Positions 373 through 49,312 of a DNA stretch of 52,451 nt are shown one piece after another. Origin of the DNA: Clostridia bacterium (GTDB lineage Bacteria > Bacillota > Clostridia > Oscillospirales > CAG-272); the NCBI GenBank assembly GCA_017440665.1, contig JAFSGU010000059.1:1-52451 (forward strand), given 5' to 3'. Both the position numbers and the translations under genes were made by a program. The notes under the pieces were generated by a model. That model did no database searches. It was not told where the DNA came from and was given only the letters and a program-made list of their open reading frames with translations. Within the stretch, counting starts at the first letter, position 1, and every line of letters starts with the position of its first letter.

Positions 373-541
373 AATGATGTTTGCCTTTGGCAAATGATGT
401 CGCTATGCAAATGATGTCGCTTGGGCTAATGATGTCGGCTTCGCCTAATGGGTTAGGGGCAAACATCGCATCATTGCGGAACGAAGTGGAGAAGCATCAT
501 TATGCGAAGCATAACATCATGTCGCGAAGCGATGCATCATT
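373..541. repeat. Structured repeat element: 4x AATGATGT, then 4x inverted (A/G)CATCAT(T/G), with mini-hairpin spacers
   Basis: AATGATGT at 373, 393, 410, 428; inverted copies at 468, 494, 514, 534. Spacers include TTGCC-ttt-GGCAA, GGC-TTC-GCC, ATGC-GAA-GCAT, TCGC-GAA-GCGA. Confidence 0.85.
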
Positions 542-568: not shown

Positions 569-591
569 AAATTTGAATAGGAGTGAGATTT

Positions 592-1092
592 ATGTTATCC
601 GGATTGGTTGGAAAGAAATTTAATTGTATCAGCCGTGCGCTTGATATGCTTTGTCTGTTCTTGGGTGAGGATTTTACTTTCGTAGGTACTCGCGGACGGA
701 AGATTCATGTTGCGGAGTACTCGATTCATTTCCAAACCCAATGGCGTTTTAGAGATGATAAGGATATTCTTTTGGCATCCAGAGATGTCTATAAGCCTTA
801 TTGTGAAAATGTACCCGAAGATTGGGAATACGATTTGGTTGGCAGATCGGATGAATTGAGTAGTGTTTTTGATGTGCGGGCAAAAGAACTGATGGCAAAA
901 ATGCAAGGAACGATCGTTACAGATGTTCACCTTTCCGCTGTAAACGATGTAACCATTACATTTTCTAATGGTATCATATTTGAACAGTTCATGCCTGCCT
1001 CGCAAAAAAAAGAAGAATGGCGACTGATTGATTATATAAATGATACACAGATCATATGCTATGACGAGGACGGTAGTATTTCGCACGAATAG
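592..1092 (+). CDS. hypothetical protein
   Basis: ORF 583..1092; AGGAG RBS favours ATG at 592; has its own promoter and a downstream hairpin. Confidence 0.8.
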   Translation: MLSGLVGKKFNCISRALDMLCLFLGEDFTFVGTRGRKIHVAEYSIHFQTQWRFRDDKDILLASRDVYKPYCENVPEDWEYDLVGRSDELSSVFDVRAKELMAKMQGTIVTDVHLSAVNDVTITFSNGIIFEQFMPASQKKEEWRLIDYINDTQIICYDEDGSISHE

Positions 1093-42497: not shown

Positions 42498-43283
42498 ATG
42501 AATCAGGAAATACGTATTTTGATCGCAGACGAGAATGCAGAGACAAGGAAGAACATCCGCGACGTGCTTGACGGAGGCGGACGCTTTGCAGTTACGGAAA
42601 CGGACAACGGGAACACGGCATACGATAAGATAAAAAACGGAGGCTTTGACATCGTTATATGCGACGCATGGCTGACGGGTATCGACGGAGTGTCGCTTAT
42701 CAGACGTTGCTCCGAGCTTAAGGGCGCGATACCGACTTTTATACTCGTGACACAGATGGCAAGCAGAAATATCTTTGTTGAGGCAAACCGCGCGGGGGCT
42801 GAGCTGTGCCTTACAAAGCCGATCGACTATACTACCTTTGCGTCTCAGCTTGAGACTATCTGCCGTAACAGGGGCTACGTTAAAAACATCAGCGGAGGCA
42901 GGGAAAAGCTGTCCCTTCCCATATCTCAGGACGATATCGAATCTCAGGTGACGAAGATAATCCATCAGATAGGCGTGCCCGCCCATATCAAGGGCTATCA
43001 GTACCTGAGAAGCGCTATTTTGATGACGGTCAATGACAACAATATTATCAACTCCGTGACAAAGGTGCTTTATCCTACGGTGGCAAAGCAGTATTCCACC
43101 ACTACGTCGAGAGTTGAGCGCGCCATCCGTCACGCCATTGAGGTGGCGTGGGACAGAGGCGATATCGATACTCTCAACTCATACTTCGGATATACCATAC
43201 AGAACAATCGGGGTAAGCCTACCAACAGTGAGTTTATCGCCATGATAGCGGATAATCTGAGACTGAAATACAAGATAAAATAA
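42498..43283 (+). CDS. spo0A: sporulation master regulator Spo0A
   Basis: Receiver domain plus [51 protein letters not shown]. Confidence 0.96.
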
Positions 43284-43339: not shown

Positions 43340-43369
43340 TTGACATTAAAGAAGAACTTATAGTATAAT
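43340..43369 (+). promoter_or_regulatory. sigma-A promoter
   Basis: TTGACA-18bp-TATAAT. Confidence 0.65.
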
Positions 43370-43419: not shown

Positions 43420-46257
43420 ATGAACGCGAAAAAACTTTTATCACTAATTCTTGCGGCGCTGATGCTTTTAAGCGTAGGTGCACTTGGGATCACTGCGGCA
43501 GACGACGCTCTTCCTTTTACGGACGTGGCGGAGGGCGCATGGTACTATGATTCTGTGAAATACGTTTACGCAAACGGGCTTATGAACGGAACGGGAAACG
43601 GAAATACGTTTTCTCCCGCTGTAGGCCTCACCCGCGGTATGGTAGTTACGGTACTCTACCGTATGTCAGGCTCCCCTGAGGCGGAATATGACGATTTTGC
43701 GTATTCCGACGTTCCCGACGGTGAGTTTTATACTCTCCCCGTAATGTGGGCGAAGGAGGCAGGTGTCGTTACCTCTACAGGTATGGATGACGTAGGCTTT
43801 GAGCTTTTCTCCCCCCTGCGTACCATCACCCGTCAGGAACTTGCTACCATGTTCGTCCGTTACGCGGCGTACGCAAGCATAGACACGGATAAAAAGGCGG
43901 ATATCTCCTCCTTCAAGGACGTGGCTCAGGTAGCGGATTGGGCATCTGATGCTATGGCGTGGTGTAATGAGGTCGGACTTATCAAGGGTACGGGAAACGG
44001 CGACATGCTCTCTCCGTTGATGACTGCAACCAGAGATCAGTTTGCTACCATCATTCACCGCTTCAAGACGACTGCTTTTGAGTATCTTTACAAGTACAAT
44101 GCTCCGAAGCTCATATCTCAGTTTACAGAGAAGGAATATTCTCCCGTTGAGGATGCGGATATCTACGTAGCAGTGGACGGTAATGACAGTAACCCCGGTA
44201 CAAAGGACAAGCCTCTTGCAACCTTCGAGGGCGCAGTTAAGAAGGTTCGTGAGCTTAAGAAGGATTCCTCAAGAGACGGTATTACAGTAGCCTTCAAGGC
44301 AGGAAACTATGGTATGCTTGATCTGGAGCTTACTGCTGAGGACTCCGGTAGCGAAAAATGCCCCATTACATATTGCGCTTACGGCGACGGCGAGGTAGTT
44401 TTCTCTAACGGATTTGAAATTTTCCTTGATGAGTTCAAGCCCATTGAGGACGGTGACAGATATCTCTTTGACGATAAGTCTGAAAATAAAATTTACAAGG
44501 TAGATCTTAAGGACAAGTCCTACGAGGGTACGCTTACACACGTTCTTCCTCTTTACGGTGACTACTACTTTGGAAACGGAACCTGCAACTACAAGGGCGA
44601 CGTTACCTTCATAAGCGGTCTTTATGACAGCGAGCAGAGCCTTGAGCTTGCACGCTTCCCCAATAAGAAGTCTGCTGACGGCGAGGACCAGTATATGGAC
44701 CTTGGCAAGGAGGTTCACCATCCCTTTGACGTTGTAGCTGAACGCATTTTTGCGAACAGACTTGCTACATATCACGAGTATAACAATATTCAGTTTATCG
44801 GTATGTTTGCCGCTGAGTATGAGTCTAACTTTGCTGCTATCGAAAGCTACAACAAGGAGACAAATACCATCACGTTCCAGAACTGGATATCCAACGGTAT
44901 CAGAGCGAATCCGGACGGATTCTTGCAGAACATTTCTGAAGAACTCGACTTTGAGGGCGAATATTGGTTAGACGTTGAAAACGAGGTGCTTTACGTTTAT
45001 GATCCTACGTCTGACGTTTATACTCTCTCTACCGCAGGAACACTTCTCAAGGTAACAGATGCGGAATACATCAGCTTCATCGGCCTTGATTTCAAGCATT
45101 CCATGGATGAGGGAATTATCGTAAACGGTAACAACATCACCATTTCCGACGCAGAGATCTTCGGTATCCACGGCTCATACGTTAGAGATACTGATTTCGG
45201 TACCTACGCGGTGATCCTTAACGGAAACAATAATGCGCTGAAGAACTCAACTCTCAGCCACCTTGGCGGCGGCGGTGTTACCATCAGTGGCGGTGATCCG
45301 GACTATCTTATTCCTTCAAACAGCGTGATCGATAACAACCTTATCACTCAGTTTGGTCAGGTATTCCAGGCATGGACTCCCGGTGTTCGTATTTTTGACT
45401 GCGTGGGAGCAACCATTTCCCACAACGAGATCAGCCATACTCCTCACCAGGCGATCCATTTCGACCGTGCGTATGAATACATTGACGGCGAGGTTCGTGC
45501 TATCGATAACGTAATAGAATATAACTATATCCACGACACTATTACTCACTACAGAGATGCAGGATCCATCTATCACGGTGAGTGTCAGACCAACAGAGGA
45601 AACATCATCCGTTACAACCTTATCAGTAAGGTTGGTGTCGGCGGATGGGGACTGTACCTTGACGACGGTATCAGCGGACAGACCGTGTATGGAAACATAT
45701 TCCACAATACGGGTGTTTGCGGTATCATGGGCGGTGCAGGACGCGATAATTTCGTGTATGACAATTATTTTATCCAGGAGGGAAATGTTCCTGTGGATAT
45801 GAGTCCGATGTCTATAGGCGCAAAGTATGCGGATATGCTGGCGGATGAGGGAGTTGACAGACTGTGGAGTTCAACATGGCCGGGAACCTACGGACAGACT
45901 ATGGCTGATATTCCCACCGATCCTGCGGCACTTAAGATCTGGCAGGAAAGATGGCCGGAGCTGTTTGAATGTCTTGATGAGAGAGACGAGATCACGCCTG
46001 ACCGTATTACAGACCGTACTCTTATGGTAAATTCTGCCGGCAGTATTTATAAGAACAATTTCGCTTACGGTGTCACAAGAATGAAGGATTTCAGCTTTGA
46101 TCCCTCTGCATTATGGTTCAACGAGGTTGAAAATAACGTTCTCTATACTGACGAGACCGATCCGCAGATATTTGTAAATCCTGCGATTGGAGACTATTCC
46201 GTTAAGCCCGGAATGGGATTTGCCGACAATCATTTCGCAGAAATCGGAAGGTATTGA
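43420..46257 (+). CDS. secreted SLH-domain + right-handed beta-helix protein (GH141-like), paralog 1
   Basis: Signal peptide; 3 SLH repeats (FTDV...W, TR motifs); YVAVDGND.NPGT, LARFPN, DAGSIY, LYLDDG; C-terminal IGRY. Confidence 0.88.
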   Translation: MNAKKLLSLILAALMLLSVGALGITAADDALPFTDVAEGAWYYDSVKYVYANGLMNGTGNGNTFSPAVGLTRGMVVTVLYRMSGSPEAEYDDFAYSDVPDGEFYTLPVMWAKEAGVVTSTGMDDVGFELFSPLRTITRQELATMFVRYAAYASIDTDKKADISSFKDVAQVADWASDAMAWCNEVGLIKGTGNGDMLSPLMTATRDQFATIIHRFKTTAFEYLYKYNAPKLISQFTEKEYSPVEDADIYVAVDGNDSNPGTKDKPLATFEGAVKKVRELKKDSSRDGITVAFKAGNYGMLDLELTAEDSGSEKCPITYCAYGDGEVVFSNGFEIFLDEFKPIEDGDRYLFDDKSENKIYKVDLKDKSYEGTLTHVLPLYGDYYFGNGTCNYKGDVTFISGLYDSEQSLELARFPNKKSADGEDQYMDLGKEVHHPFDVVAERIFANRLATYHEYNNIQFIGMFAAEYESNFAAIESYNKETNTITFQNWISNGIRANPDGFLQNISEELDFEGEYWLDVENEVLYVYDPTSDVYTLSTAGTLLKVTDAEYISFIGLDFKHSMDEGIIVNGNNITISDAEIFGIHGSYVRDTDFGTYAVILNGNNNALKNSTLSHLGGGGVTISGGDPDYLIPSNSVIDNNLITQFGQVFQAWTPGVRIFDCVGATISHNEISHTPHQAIHFDRAYEYIDGEVRAIDNVIEYNYIHDTITHYRDAGSIYHGECQTNRGNIIRYNLISKVGVGGWGLYLDDGISGQTVYGNIFHNTGVCGIMGGAGRDNFVYDNYFIQEGNVPVDMSPMSIGAKYADMLADEGVDRLWSSTWPGTYGQTMADIPTDPAALKIWQERWPELFECLDERDEITPDRITDRTLMVNSAGSIYKNNFAYGVTRMKDFSFDPSALWFNEVENNVLYTDETDPQIFVNPAIGDYSVKPGMGFADNHFAEIGRY

Positions 46258-46278
46258 TTTGTTCCTTGGAACAAATCA

Positions 46279-46443
46279 ATGAATTGCCCGTGCGGGCATG
46301 AATTGGCAGGGACCGTGAATTGCACCTGCAGTGCATGAATTGTCTTCGACATATATAGGACGGGCAATTCAAATCATAAAAGCATTAGCTTTCAATTCAT
46401 GAATTTGAAAGGTTCAATTCATGACGGTTTACCGTCAATTCAT
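46279..46443. repeat. Structured repeat element: 4x (A/G)TGAATTG, then 4x inverted CAATTCAT (first degenerate), with mini-hairpin spacers
   Basis: Direct copies at 46279, 46298, 46315, 46335; inverted at ~46365-46377 (CAATTC+AAATCAT), 46393, 46415, 46436. Spacers TGCCCG-tg-CGGGCA, TGCAC..GTGCA, TGTC-TTC-GACA, AAAGC-atta-GCTTT, TGACGGT-tt-ACCGTCA. Confidence 0.85.
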
Positions 46444-46487
46444 TTCATATATCAATAAATTAATATACCAACCAAGGAGACAAACAA

Positions 46488-49262
46488 ATGAATGCAAAAA
46501 GAATTTTGGCATTTGTCCTTTCATGCATCATGCTGCTTGGCACGTGCGTGATGGGAATTGGTGCCGCTGAAGAAAAGCTGCCCTTTACCGACGTTCCCGA
46601 GAATGAATGGTTTTACGGAGCAGTAGAGTACGTTTATGCAAACGGACTTATGAACGGTACGGGTAACGGAAGCGTATTCTCACCCAAAATGAATCTGACA
46701 CGAGGAATGGTAGTAACCGTTCTTTACAGAAATGACTCATCTCCCGCCGGCAAATATCCAAATGTTTTTGCTGACGTTGCAGAGGGTACGTACTACGCTA
46801 CAGCCGCGGCATGGGCGTACAAGAACGCGGTCGTAACCGGTACGGGCTTTGACGAATGGGGCGATCCTCTTTTCTCCCCCGACCGCAATATCACCCGTCA
46901 GGAGCTTGCGGCAATGTTTGCAAGATACGCGGCGTACCGTCACGTTGATACGACCAAGAACACAGCGGAGCTTGACAGCTTCCCCGACAGCGGAAAGGTT
47001 GCGTCCTGGGCTGAAAAGGAATTCAAGTGGTCGTCAGGTACGGGTATCATCACGGGTAAGGCGAACGGAGGCGTGACGACTCTCGCTCCCGAGGATCTTG
47101 CTACACGTGCTGAATTTGCAACGATGATCCAGCGTTATAACGTAAAGGATGACGCACGTGAATTTTCATATCTTCACGCGTACGAGACCCCTGTACTGAA
47201 ATCTCAGTATACCGAAAAGGAATACCTCCCCGTAACGGATGCTGACGTCTACGTTTCCGTTGACGGCAGTGATAAGAACGACGGTTCATTTGAAAAGCCC
47301 CTTGCTACGTTTGAGGCAGCTGTTGAAAAGGTGCGCGAGATCAAGGCTACAAAGAAAACGGGCGGGATCGTGGTTGCCTTTATGGCAGGCGAATACGAGG
47401 CTCCTGTAGACCTTGTACTCACCTCTGCAGATGCAGGTACTGCTGAATGTCCCATCTCCTACGTGAAGTACGGCGACGGTGAGGTAATATTCAATGCGGG
47501 CATGAGCTTTTCATCAGAGGATTTCACTGCGTTAACCGACGCTGAGCGTGAGATGTTCCCCGCAGAGGCACAGAACAAGATCAAAAAGATAGATCTTGGA
47601 AAGTATGGGCTTGATGCATCAAAGCTTACTGAAGACAATGCGGTGTTTGCAGGCGAGGAGAGAATGGATCTTGCCCGTTGGCCGAACAAAACCATTAAGG
47701 GGAATGACGATTTCGTTGACAAGCATTATGTTGCTTCAGTCAACATAGAGGATAAAAGCTTGGTTCTCAGAGACAGTGTGGCTGACAGGCTTAACAAATA
47801 CCATAACATTGATGATATGTATATGCTGGGATATTACAAGTACGACTGGTCTTATTCACAGGGAAAGATCATAGCATATGATGCTGAGACAGGTACTATA
47901 AAGCCTACGATCAACGGATACGGTCTCGGAACTTCCAGCGAATTCAATCTTCCTTGCTTCTATTTCTACAACATCCCCGATGAGCTTGACAGAGCTGATG
48001 AGTATTACATCGACCGTAAGACGGGAACACTTTACGTAATGGATCCTAAGGGAACGTACACTTTAGCCAAGACAGGTCAGATGATGACTATGACGGATAC
48101 GGACTACGTAAGCTTTGTTGGTCTCGAGTTCTGCTACGGAACAGGAACGTTTATGTCTGCAACGGAATCTGATCACGTTACATTCGACAGACTTTACGTT
48201 CACAATATGCGCAGTAAGGGTATTTCCATAACCGGTGATAAAGTTACTGTTACCTCTTCCGAATTCTATGACGTAGGTGCAAGAAACGTTGAACTTGTAT
48301 CGGGTGACAGAAATACTCTTACCAAGGGTAACAGCGAGATCGTTAACTGTCTCTTCGACAAGTTTGGATCTGTTGAAAAGACGGGTCAGTCCGCGATCTA
48401 CGTCTGGGGATGCGGTATCCGTATCGCACACAACGAGATATGTAACTCCTCCAATATGGGTATCTACTACAGCGAATACATCCAGGCAAGTAACTATATT
48501 ACCATTGAGTACAACTACATCCACAACGTAGTAACTCAGACTAATGACTCCGGTGCTATCTACGGCGGACGTAACCTTGCAGGTCACGGCTCCGTAGTCA
48601 GATATAATCTGATAAGCAATATCGGTGATGCTGATGAGGGATACAATCCGATCGCAATTTATCTTGATGACTATATGTCCGGTCAGGAAGTGTACGGCAA
48701 TATTATTTTCAGCAGTGCAGGCGGAAACTCCATCTTTATGCACGGAGGACGCGAGAATAAGATACACGATAATATTTTCATCACGTTAAAGGGTAGTGCA
48801 TGGCAGTCTGACGTCAGACTTAACTCAGAGGATCACGAGATAATGGCTGACAGAACTGAAGACTTTACAAAGCCTATCGGAGACCATGAGCATTTAATGA
48901 TCTTGGAGCTTGTTCCCTTCAGAAGCGAGATATGGGCACAGCATTTCCCCACTCTTGCGAAATGCAAGTACGACAAACAAGAACCCATGGCATCCATTAA
49001 GGATGACATAGATTTCATTATCAATTCCTCTTACAATGAGGTGTACGATAACCATTCGTTTACAAGCGATGTTGGACTTAAGAGTGAGTATCTCACTGAA
49101 TTCAGTGACAACGTGCGTAAGCATGCCACGAGAATCGAAGAAAACAAAAAATATACACTTGAAGAAAATCCCTACTTTGTCGATCCTACCCACGGTGACT
49201 ATACCGTAAAGGATGGCGCAGGTATTCTTGACATTCAGTATGAGAAGATCGGTAGATATTGA
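46488..49262 (+). CDS. secreted SLH-domain + right-handed beta-helix protein (GH141-like), paralog 2
   Basis: Same architecture; LARWPN, DSGAIY, IYLDDY, IGRY. Confidence 0.88.
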   Translation: MNAKRILAFVLSCIMLLGTCVMGIGAAEEKLPFTDVPENEWFYGAVEYVYANGLMNGTGNGSVFSPKMNLTRGMVVTVLYRNDSSPAGKYPNVFADVAEGTYYATAAAWAYKNAVVTGTGFDEWGDPLFSPDRNITRQELAAMFARYAAYRHVDTTKNTAELDSFPDSGKVASWAEKEFKWSSGTGIITGKANGGVTTLAPEDLATRAEFATMIQRYNVKDDAREFSYLHAYETPVLKSQYTEKEYLPVTDADVYVSVDGSDKNDGSFEKPLATFEAAVEKVREIKATKKTGGIVVAFMAGEYEAPVDLVLTSADAGTAECPISYVKYGDGEVIFNAGMSFSSEDFTALTDAEREMFPAEAQNKIKKIDLGKYGLDASKLTEDNAVFAGEERMDLARWPNKTIKGNDDFVDKHYVASVNIEDKSLVLRDSVADRLNKYHNIDDMYMLGYYKYDWSYSQGKIIAYDAETGTIKPTINGYGLGTSSEFNLPCFYFYNIPDELDRADEYYIDRKTGTLYVMDPKGTYTLAKTGQMMTMTDTDYVSFVGLEFCYGTGTFMSATESDHVTFDRLYVHNMRSKGISITGDKVTVTSSEFYDVGARNVELVSGDRNTLTKGNSEIVNCLFDKFGSVEKTGQSAIYVWGCGIRIAHNEICNSSNMGIYYSEYIQASNYITIEYNYIHNVVTQTNDSGAIYGGRNLAGHGSVVRYNLISNIGDADEGYNPIAIYLDDYMSGQEVYGNIIFSSAGGNSIFMHGGRENKIHDNIFITLKGSAWQSDVRLNSEDHEIMADRTEDFTKPIGDHEHLMILELVPFRSEIWAQHFPTLAKCKYDKQEPMASIKDDIDFIINSSYNEVYDNHSFTSDVGLKSEYLTEFSDNVRKHATRIEENKKYTLEENPYFVDPTHGDYTVKDGAGILDIQYEKIGRY

Positions 49263-49276
49263 TCTGTAAAAGCAAC

Positions 49277-49312
49277 GAGCCGTACGCCTGTGGGTGTACG
49301 GCTCAACTTTTT
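49277..49312 (+). terminator. intrinsic terminator
   Basis: GAGCCGTACGCC / GGTGTACGGCTC stem plus T-run. Confidence 0.7.

Follow-up and report, generated by a model that had tools for sequence, protein, structure and literature searches.

A hairpin-spaced word array between two SLH genes of a Clostridia bacterium is a probable gene-less copy of a repeat whose full copies carry Avd-like genes

What is the 165-bp stretch of short repeated words that lies between two surface-layer homology (SLH) paralogs of a Clostridia bacterium of the order Oscillospirales? The window analysed here is the whole of contig JAFSGU010000059.1 (assembly GCA_017440665.1), 52,451 nucleotides in length. A preliminary description, made from the sequence alone, reported at positions 46279–46443 four direct (A/G)TGAATTG copies with hairpin spacers, a centre, and inverted copies, in an arrangement matching a second element at 373–541. 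This observation is confirmed by direct reading of the sequence. The forward arm (46279–46342, + strand) contains the word ATGAATTG at 46279–46286, 46298–46305 and 46335–46342, and GTGAATTG at 46315–46322, with start-to-start spacings of 19, 17 and 20 and spacers of 11, 9 and 12 nt. The spacers GCCCgtgcGGGC and GCACctgcaGTGC are G+C-rich mini-hairpins, whereas the second forward spacer (gcagggacc) is not a hairpin (stems of 5, 2 and 5 bp; loops GTGC, none and CTGCA). The central spacer (tcttcgacatatataggacggg; 46343–46364, + strand) ends ...GGGC, with GGG just before the first inverted word, and forms the apical part of the rod in the minimum-energy fold. The reverse arm (46365–46443, + strand) comprises five inverted copies, one partial, one degenerate and three exact: CAATTCA at 46365–46371 overlaps a degenerate AAATCAT (46371–46377), and exact copies of CAATTCAT follow at 46393–46400, 46415–46422 and 46436–46443. 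Its spacers aaagcATTAgcttt and gacggTTTAccgtc are hairpins (stems of 5, 4 and 6 bp in the arm; loops ATTA, AGG and TTTA).

The sibling element at 373–541 (+ strand) has the same plan but a different word pair (AATGATGT / ACATCATT). Its right end, TCATTGAAA, supplies a −35-like TTGAAA located 18 nt upstream of TGgTATAAT. Near-copies of this element at 284–411 and 628–792 of contig C83 flank a truncated PF05635 gene (C numbers denote contigs of this genome, G numbers other genomes and L numbers array loci recovered elsewhere). Neither megablast nor blastn links the two elements of the window, and blastn-short returns only a 7-nt match (E = 1.2).

The element at 46279–46443 lies in the gap between SLH/beta-helix paralog 1 (43420–46257, + strand), whose stop codon is 21 nt before the element, and SLH paralog 2 (46488–49262, + strand), whose RBS (aaggag) and start codon follow 44 nt after it. 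No sigma-70-like promoter match was found in this gap, and the only terminator-like match is a weak one on the last hairpin of the reverse arm. A consensus promoter (TTGACA-18-TATAAT; 43340–43369, + strand) ahead of paralog 1 is the only strong promoter match upstream of the element. Together with an intrinsic terminator after paralog 2 (49277–49304, + strand), it brackets a likely two-gene transcript that contains the element. Co-transcription, as suggested in the preliminary description, is therefore plausible and probable, although inferred from sequence alone; the two RNA sequencing runs that were found contained only 4% of the sampled words.

Is the element part of a family? A scan blind to the word (at least three direct copies of any 7-mer spaced 12–32, plus at least two reverse-complement copies within 160 bp) found 17 two-armed loci in this 1.57-Mb, 55.6%-complete genome, against 0 in each of five order-3 Markov simulations. 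One-armed arrays are at least as common. Sixty-one arrays pass a hairpin filter, of which 55 belong to family words, and about 196 units match 8 word patterns. Contigs break at these arrays. At least 10 word subtypes were counted overall. TGAATTG arrays occur in 20 of 301 genomes of the order, spread over 10 families, while the reversed control pattern gives 0. The preliminary description had set fixation at this locus alone, without dispersed copies, as grounds for rejecting its reading; copies are in fact dispersed in this genome and in many other Clostridia. A scan of viral contigs for the three-word pattern gave no support for a phage origin: only 1 of 120 loci (L230, a 5-kb contig with several arrays) holds true hairpin arrays, the rest being plain tandem repeats.

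The repeating unit is an A/T-rich word followed by a G+C-rich mini-hairpin, in which hairpin sequences differ but pairing is kept. Of 94 distinct spacers, 65% have a stem of at least 4 bp, against 7% of shuffled spacers, and paralogous copies retain the words but change stems compensatorily (for example, C68:10214 versus C68:11148). The loops are strand-specific. Forward arms have TNC/TNNC loops in 29 of 67 and GNA/GNNA in 1 of 67, while reverse arms have GNA/GNNA in 35 of 66 and TNC/TNNC in 7 of 66. The unpaired linker between hairpins is most often 7 nt (26 of 68; 58 of 68 are 5–8 nt). The folding energies of the element are below those of every one of 200 dinucleotide shuffles, with z = −4.75 as RNA on the + strand, −4.38 as DNA on the + strand and −3.90 as RNA on the − strand. 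Pairing between the two inverted runs appears in the minimum-energy fold. It is not, however, what defines the family, since one-armed arrays are common and chimeric elements carry different words in their two arms (C74:16635 in this genome; L117 and L069 elsewhere).

The main new result is a link to a gene family. Full-length copies of the repeat carry a small gene for a four-helix-bundle protein of the PF05635/TIGR02436 family, that of the 23S rRNA intervening-sequence (IVS) protein S23p and of Avd. The ORF beside the element in genome G299 matches PF05635 at E = 5.6e-24 and TIGR02436 at E = 6e-29. All three PF05635 hits in the present genome abut arrays (C5:24111, C74:25968 and C83:464), and gene-bearing copies were also found in G299, G286, G021 and 10 or more further loci. 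Among the 29 best PF05635 loci in other genomes, 12 pass the strict array filter, against 1 of 29 RAYT loci, and by eye the remaining PF05635 loci have tandem heptamers. Of 19 other genomes with TGAATTG arrays, 18 have PF05635, against 112 of 281 without such arrays (odds ratio 27, p = 1.7e-6, although related genomes are not independent). The copy at 46279–46443 has no such ORF, and no PF05635 gene with the TGAATTG word was found in this incomplete genome. Its link to the protein thus rests on other genomes, and it is regarded here as a gene-less derivative.

Each word type is associated with its own protein clade, across host families. On a tree of 41 proteins, 10 word labels need 9 changes, the minimum possible; the shuffled mean is 19.3, and 0 of 200 shuffles are as low. 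The 20 hairpin-array-linked proteins form one clade (support 100/96) that cuts across host families. Proteins of different clades include those of C5:24087–24440 (word ATGAAGC), C74 (TGATATA) and L287:1700–2065 (TGAATTG). TGAATTG arms flank or precede PF05635 genes at L045, L062, L090, L099, L106, L287 and L345, and these proteins form one clade (support 96/91) or have it as their best hit. A prospective check in G021 agrees. The TGAATTG loci were picked by their word, which is an ascertainment bias for that one label, and physical linkage alone would make arms and gene co-diverge, so that the congruence does not prove recognition.

The arrays also show turnover. One orthologous site in genus g35 occurs in four states: a solo arm (G246), arm-arm-gene-arm (G286), a cassette with a different word (G299), and no array (G042). 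For the element itself, strain contigs from two sequencing runs lack 43 nt (two units, 46392–46434) or 21 nt (one unit) of the reverse arm. Contigs from strains of about 95% identity cover the element and none skips it entirely; depth spikes over the arms reflect copies elsewhere in the metagenomes. No precise empty site could be read in the nearest genomes, which are only about 74% identical: G019 has a different-word remnant plus a terminator and promoter at the matching SLH junction, and G016 has different synteny. When solo arms were compared with local gene orientation as a proxy for replication direction, no strand trend appeared (8 of 17 forward and 4 of 13 reverse arms lie in plus-rich neighbourhoods), although several of these arms are halves of two-armed elements that missed the filter.

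The best explanation, to which a probability of roughly 0.7 is assigned, is that the sequence is a gene-less, two-armed copy of a modular selfish repeat family of gut and rumen Clostridia with order-level spread. In this view, an arm is a run of 3–5 units, sometimes up to 10, all with the same word and with about 7 nt left unpaired after each hairpin folds, and a two-armed element is two such runs in inverted orientation. Full-length members carry the PF05635 gene next to or between the arms, each word subtype travelling with its own clade of the protein. Two-armed elements such as this one, and solo arms, would be the more numerous non-autonomous or decayed forms, arising by recombination between arms, with unit number drifting by slippage at the identical words. 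In a single strand, either transcript or ssDNA, the hairpins would fold out and the words line up as a quasi-contiguous heptamer array, the same layout as the plain tandem heptamers flanking related PF05635 genes, and this array would be the ligand of the cognate pentameric protein ring. As RNA, the present copy would fold into a stable branched rod of about −56 kcal/mol. Movement of the elements, binding of the words by the protein, and transcription of this copy are inferred. PF05635 has no known catalytic activity, no recombinase was seen next to the cassettes, and mobility is inferred only from comparison. Both gene/arm orders (F-R-gene and R-F-gene) exist, as do chimeric arms, and a simple one-mechanism model does not explain these.

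The interpretation in the preliminary description is thus supported in part. The two elements of the window are indeed sequence subtypes of one architecture-defined family that BLAST does not link, and the suggestion that different words reflect different cognate proteins gains real support from the clade association, albeit by correlation rather than binding data; its emphasis on arm-to-arm pairing is not supported as stated.

Among alternative explanations, a free-standing structured RNA (a cis-acting stabiliser or processing site, or a protein sponge), dependent on the branched rod and independent of any linked gene, survives best but is unlikely. It could account for folding z-scores of −3.5 to −4.75, arm-to-arm pairing with side hairpins, compensatory stem changes, and positions inside likely transcripts, as here, in the 3′ UTR of the SLH genes on C32, and in 5′ UTRs (C20; G299). 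However, solo arms cannot form the rod and are common, chimeric arms exist, many copies lie upstream of promoters rather than inside transcripts, and all flanking-gene orientations occur, as judged from crude longest-ORF gene calls. No Rfam family matched at gathering score in the whole window, and the five matches over 46230–46490 all had E > 4 and scored far below gathering. The loops are mostly GNA triloops, which are typical of stable DNA mini-hairpins rather than RNA.

Arrays of double-stranded operator sites for a DNA-binding regulator, possibly the PF05635 protein itself, with binding that controls the adjacent promoter and incidental hairpins, are a still less likely alternative. The right end of several subtypes supplies the −35 box (TCATTGAAA), the last word of the TGATATA subtype is an extended −10 (TGATATAAT) of the PF05635 gene, and the commonest period is 20–22 bp, about two helical turns (50 of 94 spacers). 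Periods nevertheless range from 14 to 33 bp within single arrays, so there is no fixed helical phasing. Strong selection for hairpin potential with free sequence, and strand-specific loops, have no role in a duplex-binding model, and most copies, including this one, are not next to a PF05635 promoter.

REP/BIME-type repeats moved by RAYT (IS200/IS605-like Y1) transposases acting on single-stranded hairpins, each word being the tag of a different RAYT paralog, were considered first and rejected. REP/BIME/REPIN elements are likewise short intergenic hairpin repeats that occur in clusters and in many copies per genome, with a single-stranded tag next to each hairpin. The genome has four PF01797 hits and 10 matches to a RAYT-like protein, one RAYT gene (C52:11368–11907) lies about 120 bp from the element at C52:12029–12182, and GTAG-plus-hairpin REPs abut several ATGAAGC solo arrays. 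The other three RAYT genes examined in this genome have no array beside them, the single one of 29 RAYT loci elsewhere that passed the array filter has an unrelated word (GAGATC), and no RAYT homolog was found in the 120 array-bearing loci. Only 3 of 19 array-bearing genomes have a RAYT, against 61 of 281 others (odds ratio 0.68, p = 0.77), and G021, with 51 pattern matches, has none at E ≤ 1e-10. The words, (A/G)TGAATTG and similar, carry no GTAG or CGTC tag, the conserved part is the linker rather than the hairpin, and units are direct within an arm, not alternating as in BIMEs. A chance or low-complexity tandem repeat is refuted by the simulations, the reversed control pattern and the conservation of architecture and centre sequence across many genomes, even though outside Clostridia the three-word pattern does hit plain tandem repeats, with only 2 of 68 loci not labelled Firmicutes passing the hairpin filter.

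The 23S rRNA IVS with an S23p ORF, found in Coxiella, Leptospira and others, has a linked protein of the same family and terminal inverted repeats that can form a stem. In Coxiella, tandem heptamers (GACAGAT) lie upstream of the ORF in 2 or 3 copies depending on the strain, and the IVS is described as a selfish element (PMC4990558). Related genes in the present order are flanked by inverted runs of tandem heptamers. The elements described here differ in lying between protein-coding or tRNA genes rather than in rRNA, in having heptamers separated by mini-hairpins in the clade studied, and in the amplification of gene-less two-armed and one-armed copies to dozens per genome. The Rfam scan detected no rRNA in the window, and the flanks of this copy are protein-coding genes rather than a 23S rRNA helix from which RNase III excises the IVS.

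PF05635 is described as resembling Avd, the accessory protein of diversity-generating retroelements (PMC10053308). S23p of Xanthomonas is described as a homopentamer (PMC4990558), and the closest solved relative, 2RLD, has five chains (E = 1.4e-33). By eye, no reverse transcriptase or template/variable repeats were seen beside the genes in the flanks read. As in MITEs, the element is small (about 165 bp), intergenic and has inverted ends, and gene-less copies outnumber gene-bearing relatives that share the same ends. The gene of those relatives, however, encodes PF05635, which is not a known transposase, no target-site duplication was seen by eye at the flanks of the 17 elements, and the ends are arrays of repeated words whose two arms can be of different subtypes. 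BOX elements of Streptococcus pneumoniae are also modular intergenic repeats with a variable number of internal units and a strong predicted secondary structure, but BOX modules are 45–59 bp conserved sequences that are not known to have a word-plus-variable-hairpin unit or a linked protein gene. Literature searches, including PMC6006769 and preprint 10.64898/2026.09.22.753630, found no description of hairpin-spaced word arrays or of PF05635 clades tracking flanking repeats, although most papers were seen only in outline and supplements, which may hold relevant repeat tables, were not covered.

A more far-reaching possibility, which remains tentative, is a previously unrecognised protein-and-repeat selfish system. 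Pentameric Avd/S23p-like proteins would each recognise their own 7–8-nt word, displayed as a multi-copy single-stranded array of plain tandem heptamers or, in this Clostridia clade, of heptamers brought together by fold-out hairpins. This recognition would drive the maintenance, regulation or spread of the cassettes and of their far more numerous gene-less copies. If true, it would give the orphan S23p/IVS protein family a ligand, explain rRNA intervening sequences as one niche of a much wider element class, and reveal a simple, evolvable protein-to-word recognition code.

The family represents a large class of bacterial repeats that sequence similarity cannot find, since the conserved part is only 7–8 nt and the rest is structure, and these repeats break assemblies of gut and rumen Clostridia. 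Elements of this kind can replace the terminator-plus-promoter module between genes, as here between two SLH genes, and can also bring promoters with them, so they matter for operon annotation. PF05635, annotated as "four helix bundle protein", occurs in 131 of the 301 genomes sampled in this order and, apart from the role of Avd in diversity-generating retroelements, has no known function; the repeat word next to each gene is now a concrete candidate ligand. The old question of what rRNA intervening sequences are and how they spread becomes approachable, as their heptamer repeats and inverted ends look like one case of a general cassette design.

Positions 46279–46443 of the window contain four direct copies of (A/G)TGAATTG, starting at 46279, 46298, 46315 and 46335, followed by a 22-nt centre ending in GGG, a CAATTCA (46365) that overlaps a degenerate AAATCAT, and three exact copies of CAATTCAT (46393, 46415 and 46436). 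The arrangement reported in the preliminary description is thus confirmed. Two of the three left spacers and at least two of the right spacers are small G+C-rich hairpins. The companion element at 373–541 (element 1) has the same plan, but is built from AATGATGT / ACATCATT, and BLAST does not connect the two. As a single strand, the element at 46279–46443 folds far better than any shuffle, with z-scores of −4.75 (RNA, + strand), −4.38 (DNA, + strand) and −3.90 (RNA, − strand), and 0 of 200 shuffles folding as well. In the minimum-energy fold, the left words pair with the right words and the spacers protrude as side hairpins. Element 1 behaves alike (z = −3.48). No Rfam family matches. The ORF downstream of element 1 (window 583–1092; 169 aa from the listed GTG, with an ATG at 593) has no Pfam match, and is driven by a promoter whose −35 box lies in the end of the element.

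The whole assembly (1.57 Mb, 88 contigs, 55.6% complete) was scanned without specifying a word. Seventeen two-armed loci were recovered, against none in five order-3 Markov simulations. Their words are ATGATGT, ATGAAGC, TGAATTG, TGATATA, TGAAATA and GCTAAAT, to which GTTATGG, GTTATA and GTGAAAT were subsequently added. A looser scan shows many one-armed arrays of 3–10 units, several of which are located exactly at contig ends. When a hairpin filter is applied, 61 arrays remain, of which 55 carry family words, and about 196 units match eight word patterns. The arrays are intergenic and, using crude ORF calls, are found with every combination of flanking-gene orientation. A ten-unit ATTTAGC array at a contig end (contig C51:13–198 of this genome) is built from alternating pairs of hairpins, which points to growth by duplication of two-unit blocks. 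At C46:9867–10195, a GCTAAAT arm, a CAATTCA arm, a TGAATTG arm and a second, identical CAATTCA arm form a composite that looks like tandem or nested elements.

Within an array the word is constant while the hairpins differ. Paralogous copies keep their flanks and words but change their stems in a compensating way, for example C68:10214 versus C68:11148. Among 94 distinct spacers from other genomes, 65% have a perfect stem of at least 4 bp, against 7% of shuffled spacers, and the hairpin takes up 82% of the spacer on average. The loops are strand-specific: arms with the forward word have TNC/TNNC loops (29 of 67, against 1 GNA), while arms with the reverse word have GNA/GNNA loops (35 of 66, against 7 TNC). 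The two arms are therefore inverted arrays of one oriented unit. The unpaired stretch between successive hairpins is most often 7 nt (26 of 68; 58 of 68 are 5–8 nt), whereas start-to-start periods range from 14 to 33 bp. The arms are separable modules, since solo arms are common and chimeric elements exist with different words in the two arms (C74:16635 in this genome, and the loci L117 and L069 elsewhere; L numbers denote extracted comparison loci). Left-right pairing is therefore not what defines the family.

A scan of one genome per species for three TGAATTG words returned at least 120 loci. Among 120 of these, 30 of 52 Firmicutes-labelled loci hold hairpin arrays under a strict filter, against 2 of 68 others. 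One of these two is a true element in a MAG labelled Synergistes sp. (L114), and the other is a Bacteroidales tandem repeat. By visual inspection, most of the remaining Firmicutes loci are arrays with 3-bp stems. The carriers are gut and rumen MAGs labelled Clostridia, Acutalibacteraceae, Oscillospiraceae, Ruminococcaceae, Christensenella, Ca. Scatosoma and Faecousia. The TGAATTG subtype keeps a recognisable centre across genomes (CAATTCAATTCAtGGAGC...GCGAGAAATCATG). In an even sample of the window's order (genomes with G numbers), 20 of 301 genomes carry the pattern. They are spread over 10 families with very uneven counts (51 matches in G021 and 23 in G299), while the reversed control pattern gives 0 everywhere. 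Among viral contigs, only 1 of 120 loci is a true case, a 5128-bp IMG/VR contig that holds several arrays (L230). The occurrence of true TGAATTG elements in L114 and L230 could possibly be explained by mis-binning, misclassification or transfer.

An association with RAYT-like Y1 transposases was considered first, and was rejected. The window's genome has several RAYT-like genes (about 10 matches despite its incompleteness) and GTAG-type REP hairpins, and one RAYT gene lies about 120 bp from an element. GTAG-tagged REP-like hairpins (for example GTAGGG plus a bulged hairpin) and other short palindromes also form composite repeats together with ATGAAGC or ATATCA solo arrays at C11:1–255, C52:1–406, C81:1–276, C80:16546–16821, C18:15–388 and C24:191–623, many of them at contig ends. 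However, this link does not generalise. No RAYT occurs in the 120 array loci, 1 of 29 RAYT loci in other genomes passed the array filter, with an unrelated word, and 3 of 19 array-bearing genomes have a RAYT, against 61 of 281 others (odds ratio 0.68, p = 0.77).

A different gene link emerged from a genus with uneven array counts (g35), in which one orthologous site, between a promoter and the RBS of a release-factor-2-like gene, is found in four states. Genome G246 has a solo arm with the word CTCGATATG; G286 has an arm, an inverted arm, a small ORF and a second copy of the first arm; G299 has a two-armed TGAATTG element plus a small ORF; and G042 has no array. The ORFs are PF05635 (E = 5.6e-24) and TIGR02436 “four helix bundle protein” (E = 6e-29). 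The G286 state relative to that of G246 is what recombination between two copies of an arm would make or undo, comparable to a solo LTR, although this is an inference. In the window's own genome, all 3 PF05635 hits abut arrays. C5:24111 follows an ATGAAGC two-armed element whose right end, TCATTGAAAAA, supplies the −35 box. C74:25968 follows the TGATATA element, the last word of which, TGATATAAT, is an extended −10. A truncated copy on C83 lies between two ATGATGT elements that are near-copies of element 1. PF05635 genes are also found next to TGAATTG arrays in L045, L062, L090, L099 and L106, and a homolog in L121 that is 83% identical to the C74 protein has the same TGATATA element.

In the order sample, PF05635 occurs in 131 of 301 genomes. 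Of the 19 other TGAATTG-array genomes, 18 have it, against 112 of 281 of the rest (odds ratio 27, p = 1.7e-6), although related genomes are not independent and one of the 19, G253, is a coding repeat. Of the 29 best-scoring PF05635 loci, 12 pass the strict array filter. By visual inspection, the other loci are flanked by inverted runs of plain tandem heptamers, and Tandem Repeats Finder confirms period 7 in L319 and L320. PF05635 genes of other clades (L313–L322, L325–L329, L331, L333, L334, L342–L344 and L349) are flanked by such runs, each gene with its own heptamer, and several are wedged between unrelated genes, for example ahead of restriction-enzyme-like ORFs. In G021, the nine PF05635 loci comprise three hairpin-array cases, five tandem-heptamer cases and one that is unclear.

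Every arrangement of gene and arms (F, forward; R, reverse) was observed: F-gene-R in L345, L090 and L323; R-gene-F in L106 and L348; F-R-gene in C5, G299, L062, L099, L332b, L337 and L341; R-F-gene in C74, L121 and L347; and F-R-gene-F(-R) in L293 and L339. Eight of eight cassettes checked lie just 3′ of a tRNA gene and a terminator, with different tRNAs at different loci. The same terminator hairpin (aaagcacttcgaaagaagtgctttttt) follows different tRNA genes in different genomes, just ahead of the cassettes (L310:1233–1290, which is C5 of the window's genome, L336 and L335), and may itself be part of the mobile unit.

The repeat word and the protein go together. On a maximum-likelihood tree of 41 PF05635 proteins, ten labels (nine words plus “tandem heptamer”) need 9 changes, the minimum possible, whereas the shuffled mean is 19.3 and 0 of 200 shuffles are as low. 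The 20 hairpin-array-linked proteins form one clade (support 100/96) nested among the heptamer-linked ones. The proteins linked to TGAATTG (96/91), TGATATA (100/100) and ATGAAGC (100/95) each form one clade, and each clade contains hosts of different families. It should be considered that the TGAATTG loci were chosen by their word, and that linkage alone can produce this pattern. Similar words have sister proteins, for example GTGAAGT with ATGAAGC, and AATGATG with GTGATGC. A prospective check in G021 agrees: the TGAATTG-flanked protein best-hits three TGAATTG-clade proteins, and the CTCGATATG-flanked one best-hits L293 at 69.6% identity.

At the locus itself, a consensus promoter lies ahead of SLH paralog 1 (43340–43369) and a strong terminator follows SLH paralog 2 (49277–49304), while the gap at 46258–46487 has no promoter-like match and only a weak terminator-like match on the last hairpin. 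Other SLH junctions, on C32 of this genome (26751–26900, 32766–32900 and 35894–36020) and in G019 (locus L126), share a fixed module comprising a stop codon, a GTTATGG/CCATAAC two-armed element, a terminator and a consensus promoter, which appears to have been duplicated together with the genes. The element at 46279–46443 is therefore probably co-transcribed with both SLH genes, as inferred from sequence alone. Strains in gut metagenomes keep the element at this locus, but have lost one or two units of the right arm. A Spo0A gene (Spo0A_C, E = 7.8e-47) lies just upstream of the SLH cluster, at window 42498–43283, so the organism is an endospore-lineage Firmicute.

PF05635 is the family of S23p, the ORF of some 23S rRNA intervening sequences (IVS). 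The Coxiella IVS is described as a selfish element with terminal inverted repeats forming a 28-bp stem that is cut by RNase III. It has tandem heptamers (GACAGAT) upstream of the ORF, the number of which differs between strains, and the S23p of Xanthomonas is described as a homopentameric ring (PMC4990558). PF05635 is also said to resemble Avd of diversity-generating retroelements (PMC10053308). The closest solved relative of the C5 protein is 2RLD (E = 1.4e-33, five chains). Literature searches found no paper describing hairpin-spaced arrays or the match between word and protein clade.

The finding is real, and leads to a larger result than the preliminary description had anticipated. The interpretation offered there is supported in part: its core idea, of two sequence subtypes of one structure-defined family that BLAST would not link, is right, except that pairing between the arms was treated as the defining feature. 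The repeat family, its hairpin-spaced unit, its linkage to PF05635 genes and the match between word and protein clade rest on the sequence comparisons, whereas recognition of the words by the protein, any movement of the DNA, the origin of the gene-less copies, and co-transcription at this locus with any effect on the mRNA are matters of inference. In duplex DNA the words are 14–33 bp apart. In the model that we infer, the hairpins would fold out in a single strand and the roughly 7-nt linkers would become neighbours, in the same layout as the plain tandem heptamers of the sister clades. In this view, it is understandable that only hairpin potential, and not hairpin sequence or length, is kept. 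We propose that gene-less copies are non-autonomous or decayed relatives, and that the array thus formed is the ligand of the cognate pentameric protein.
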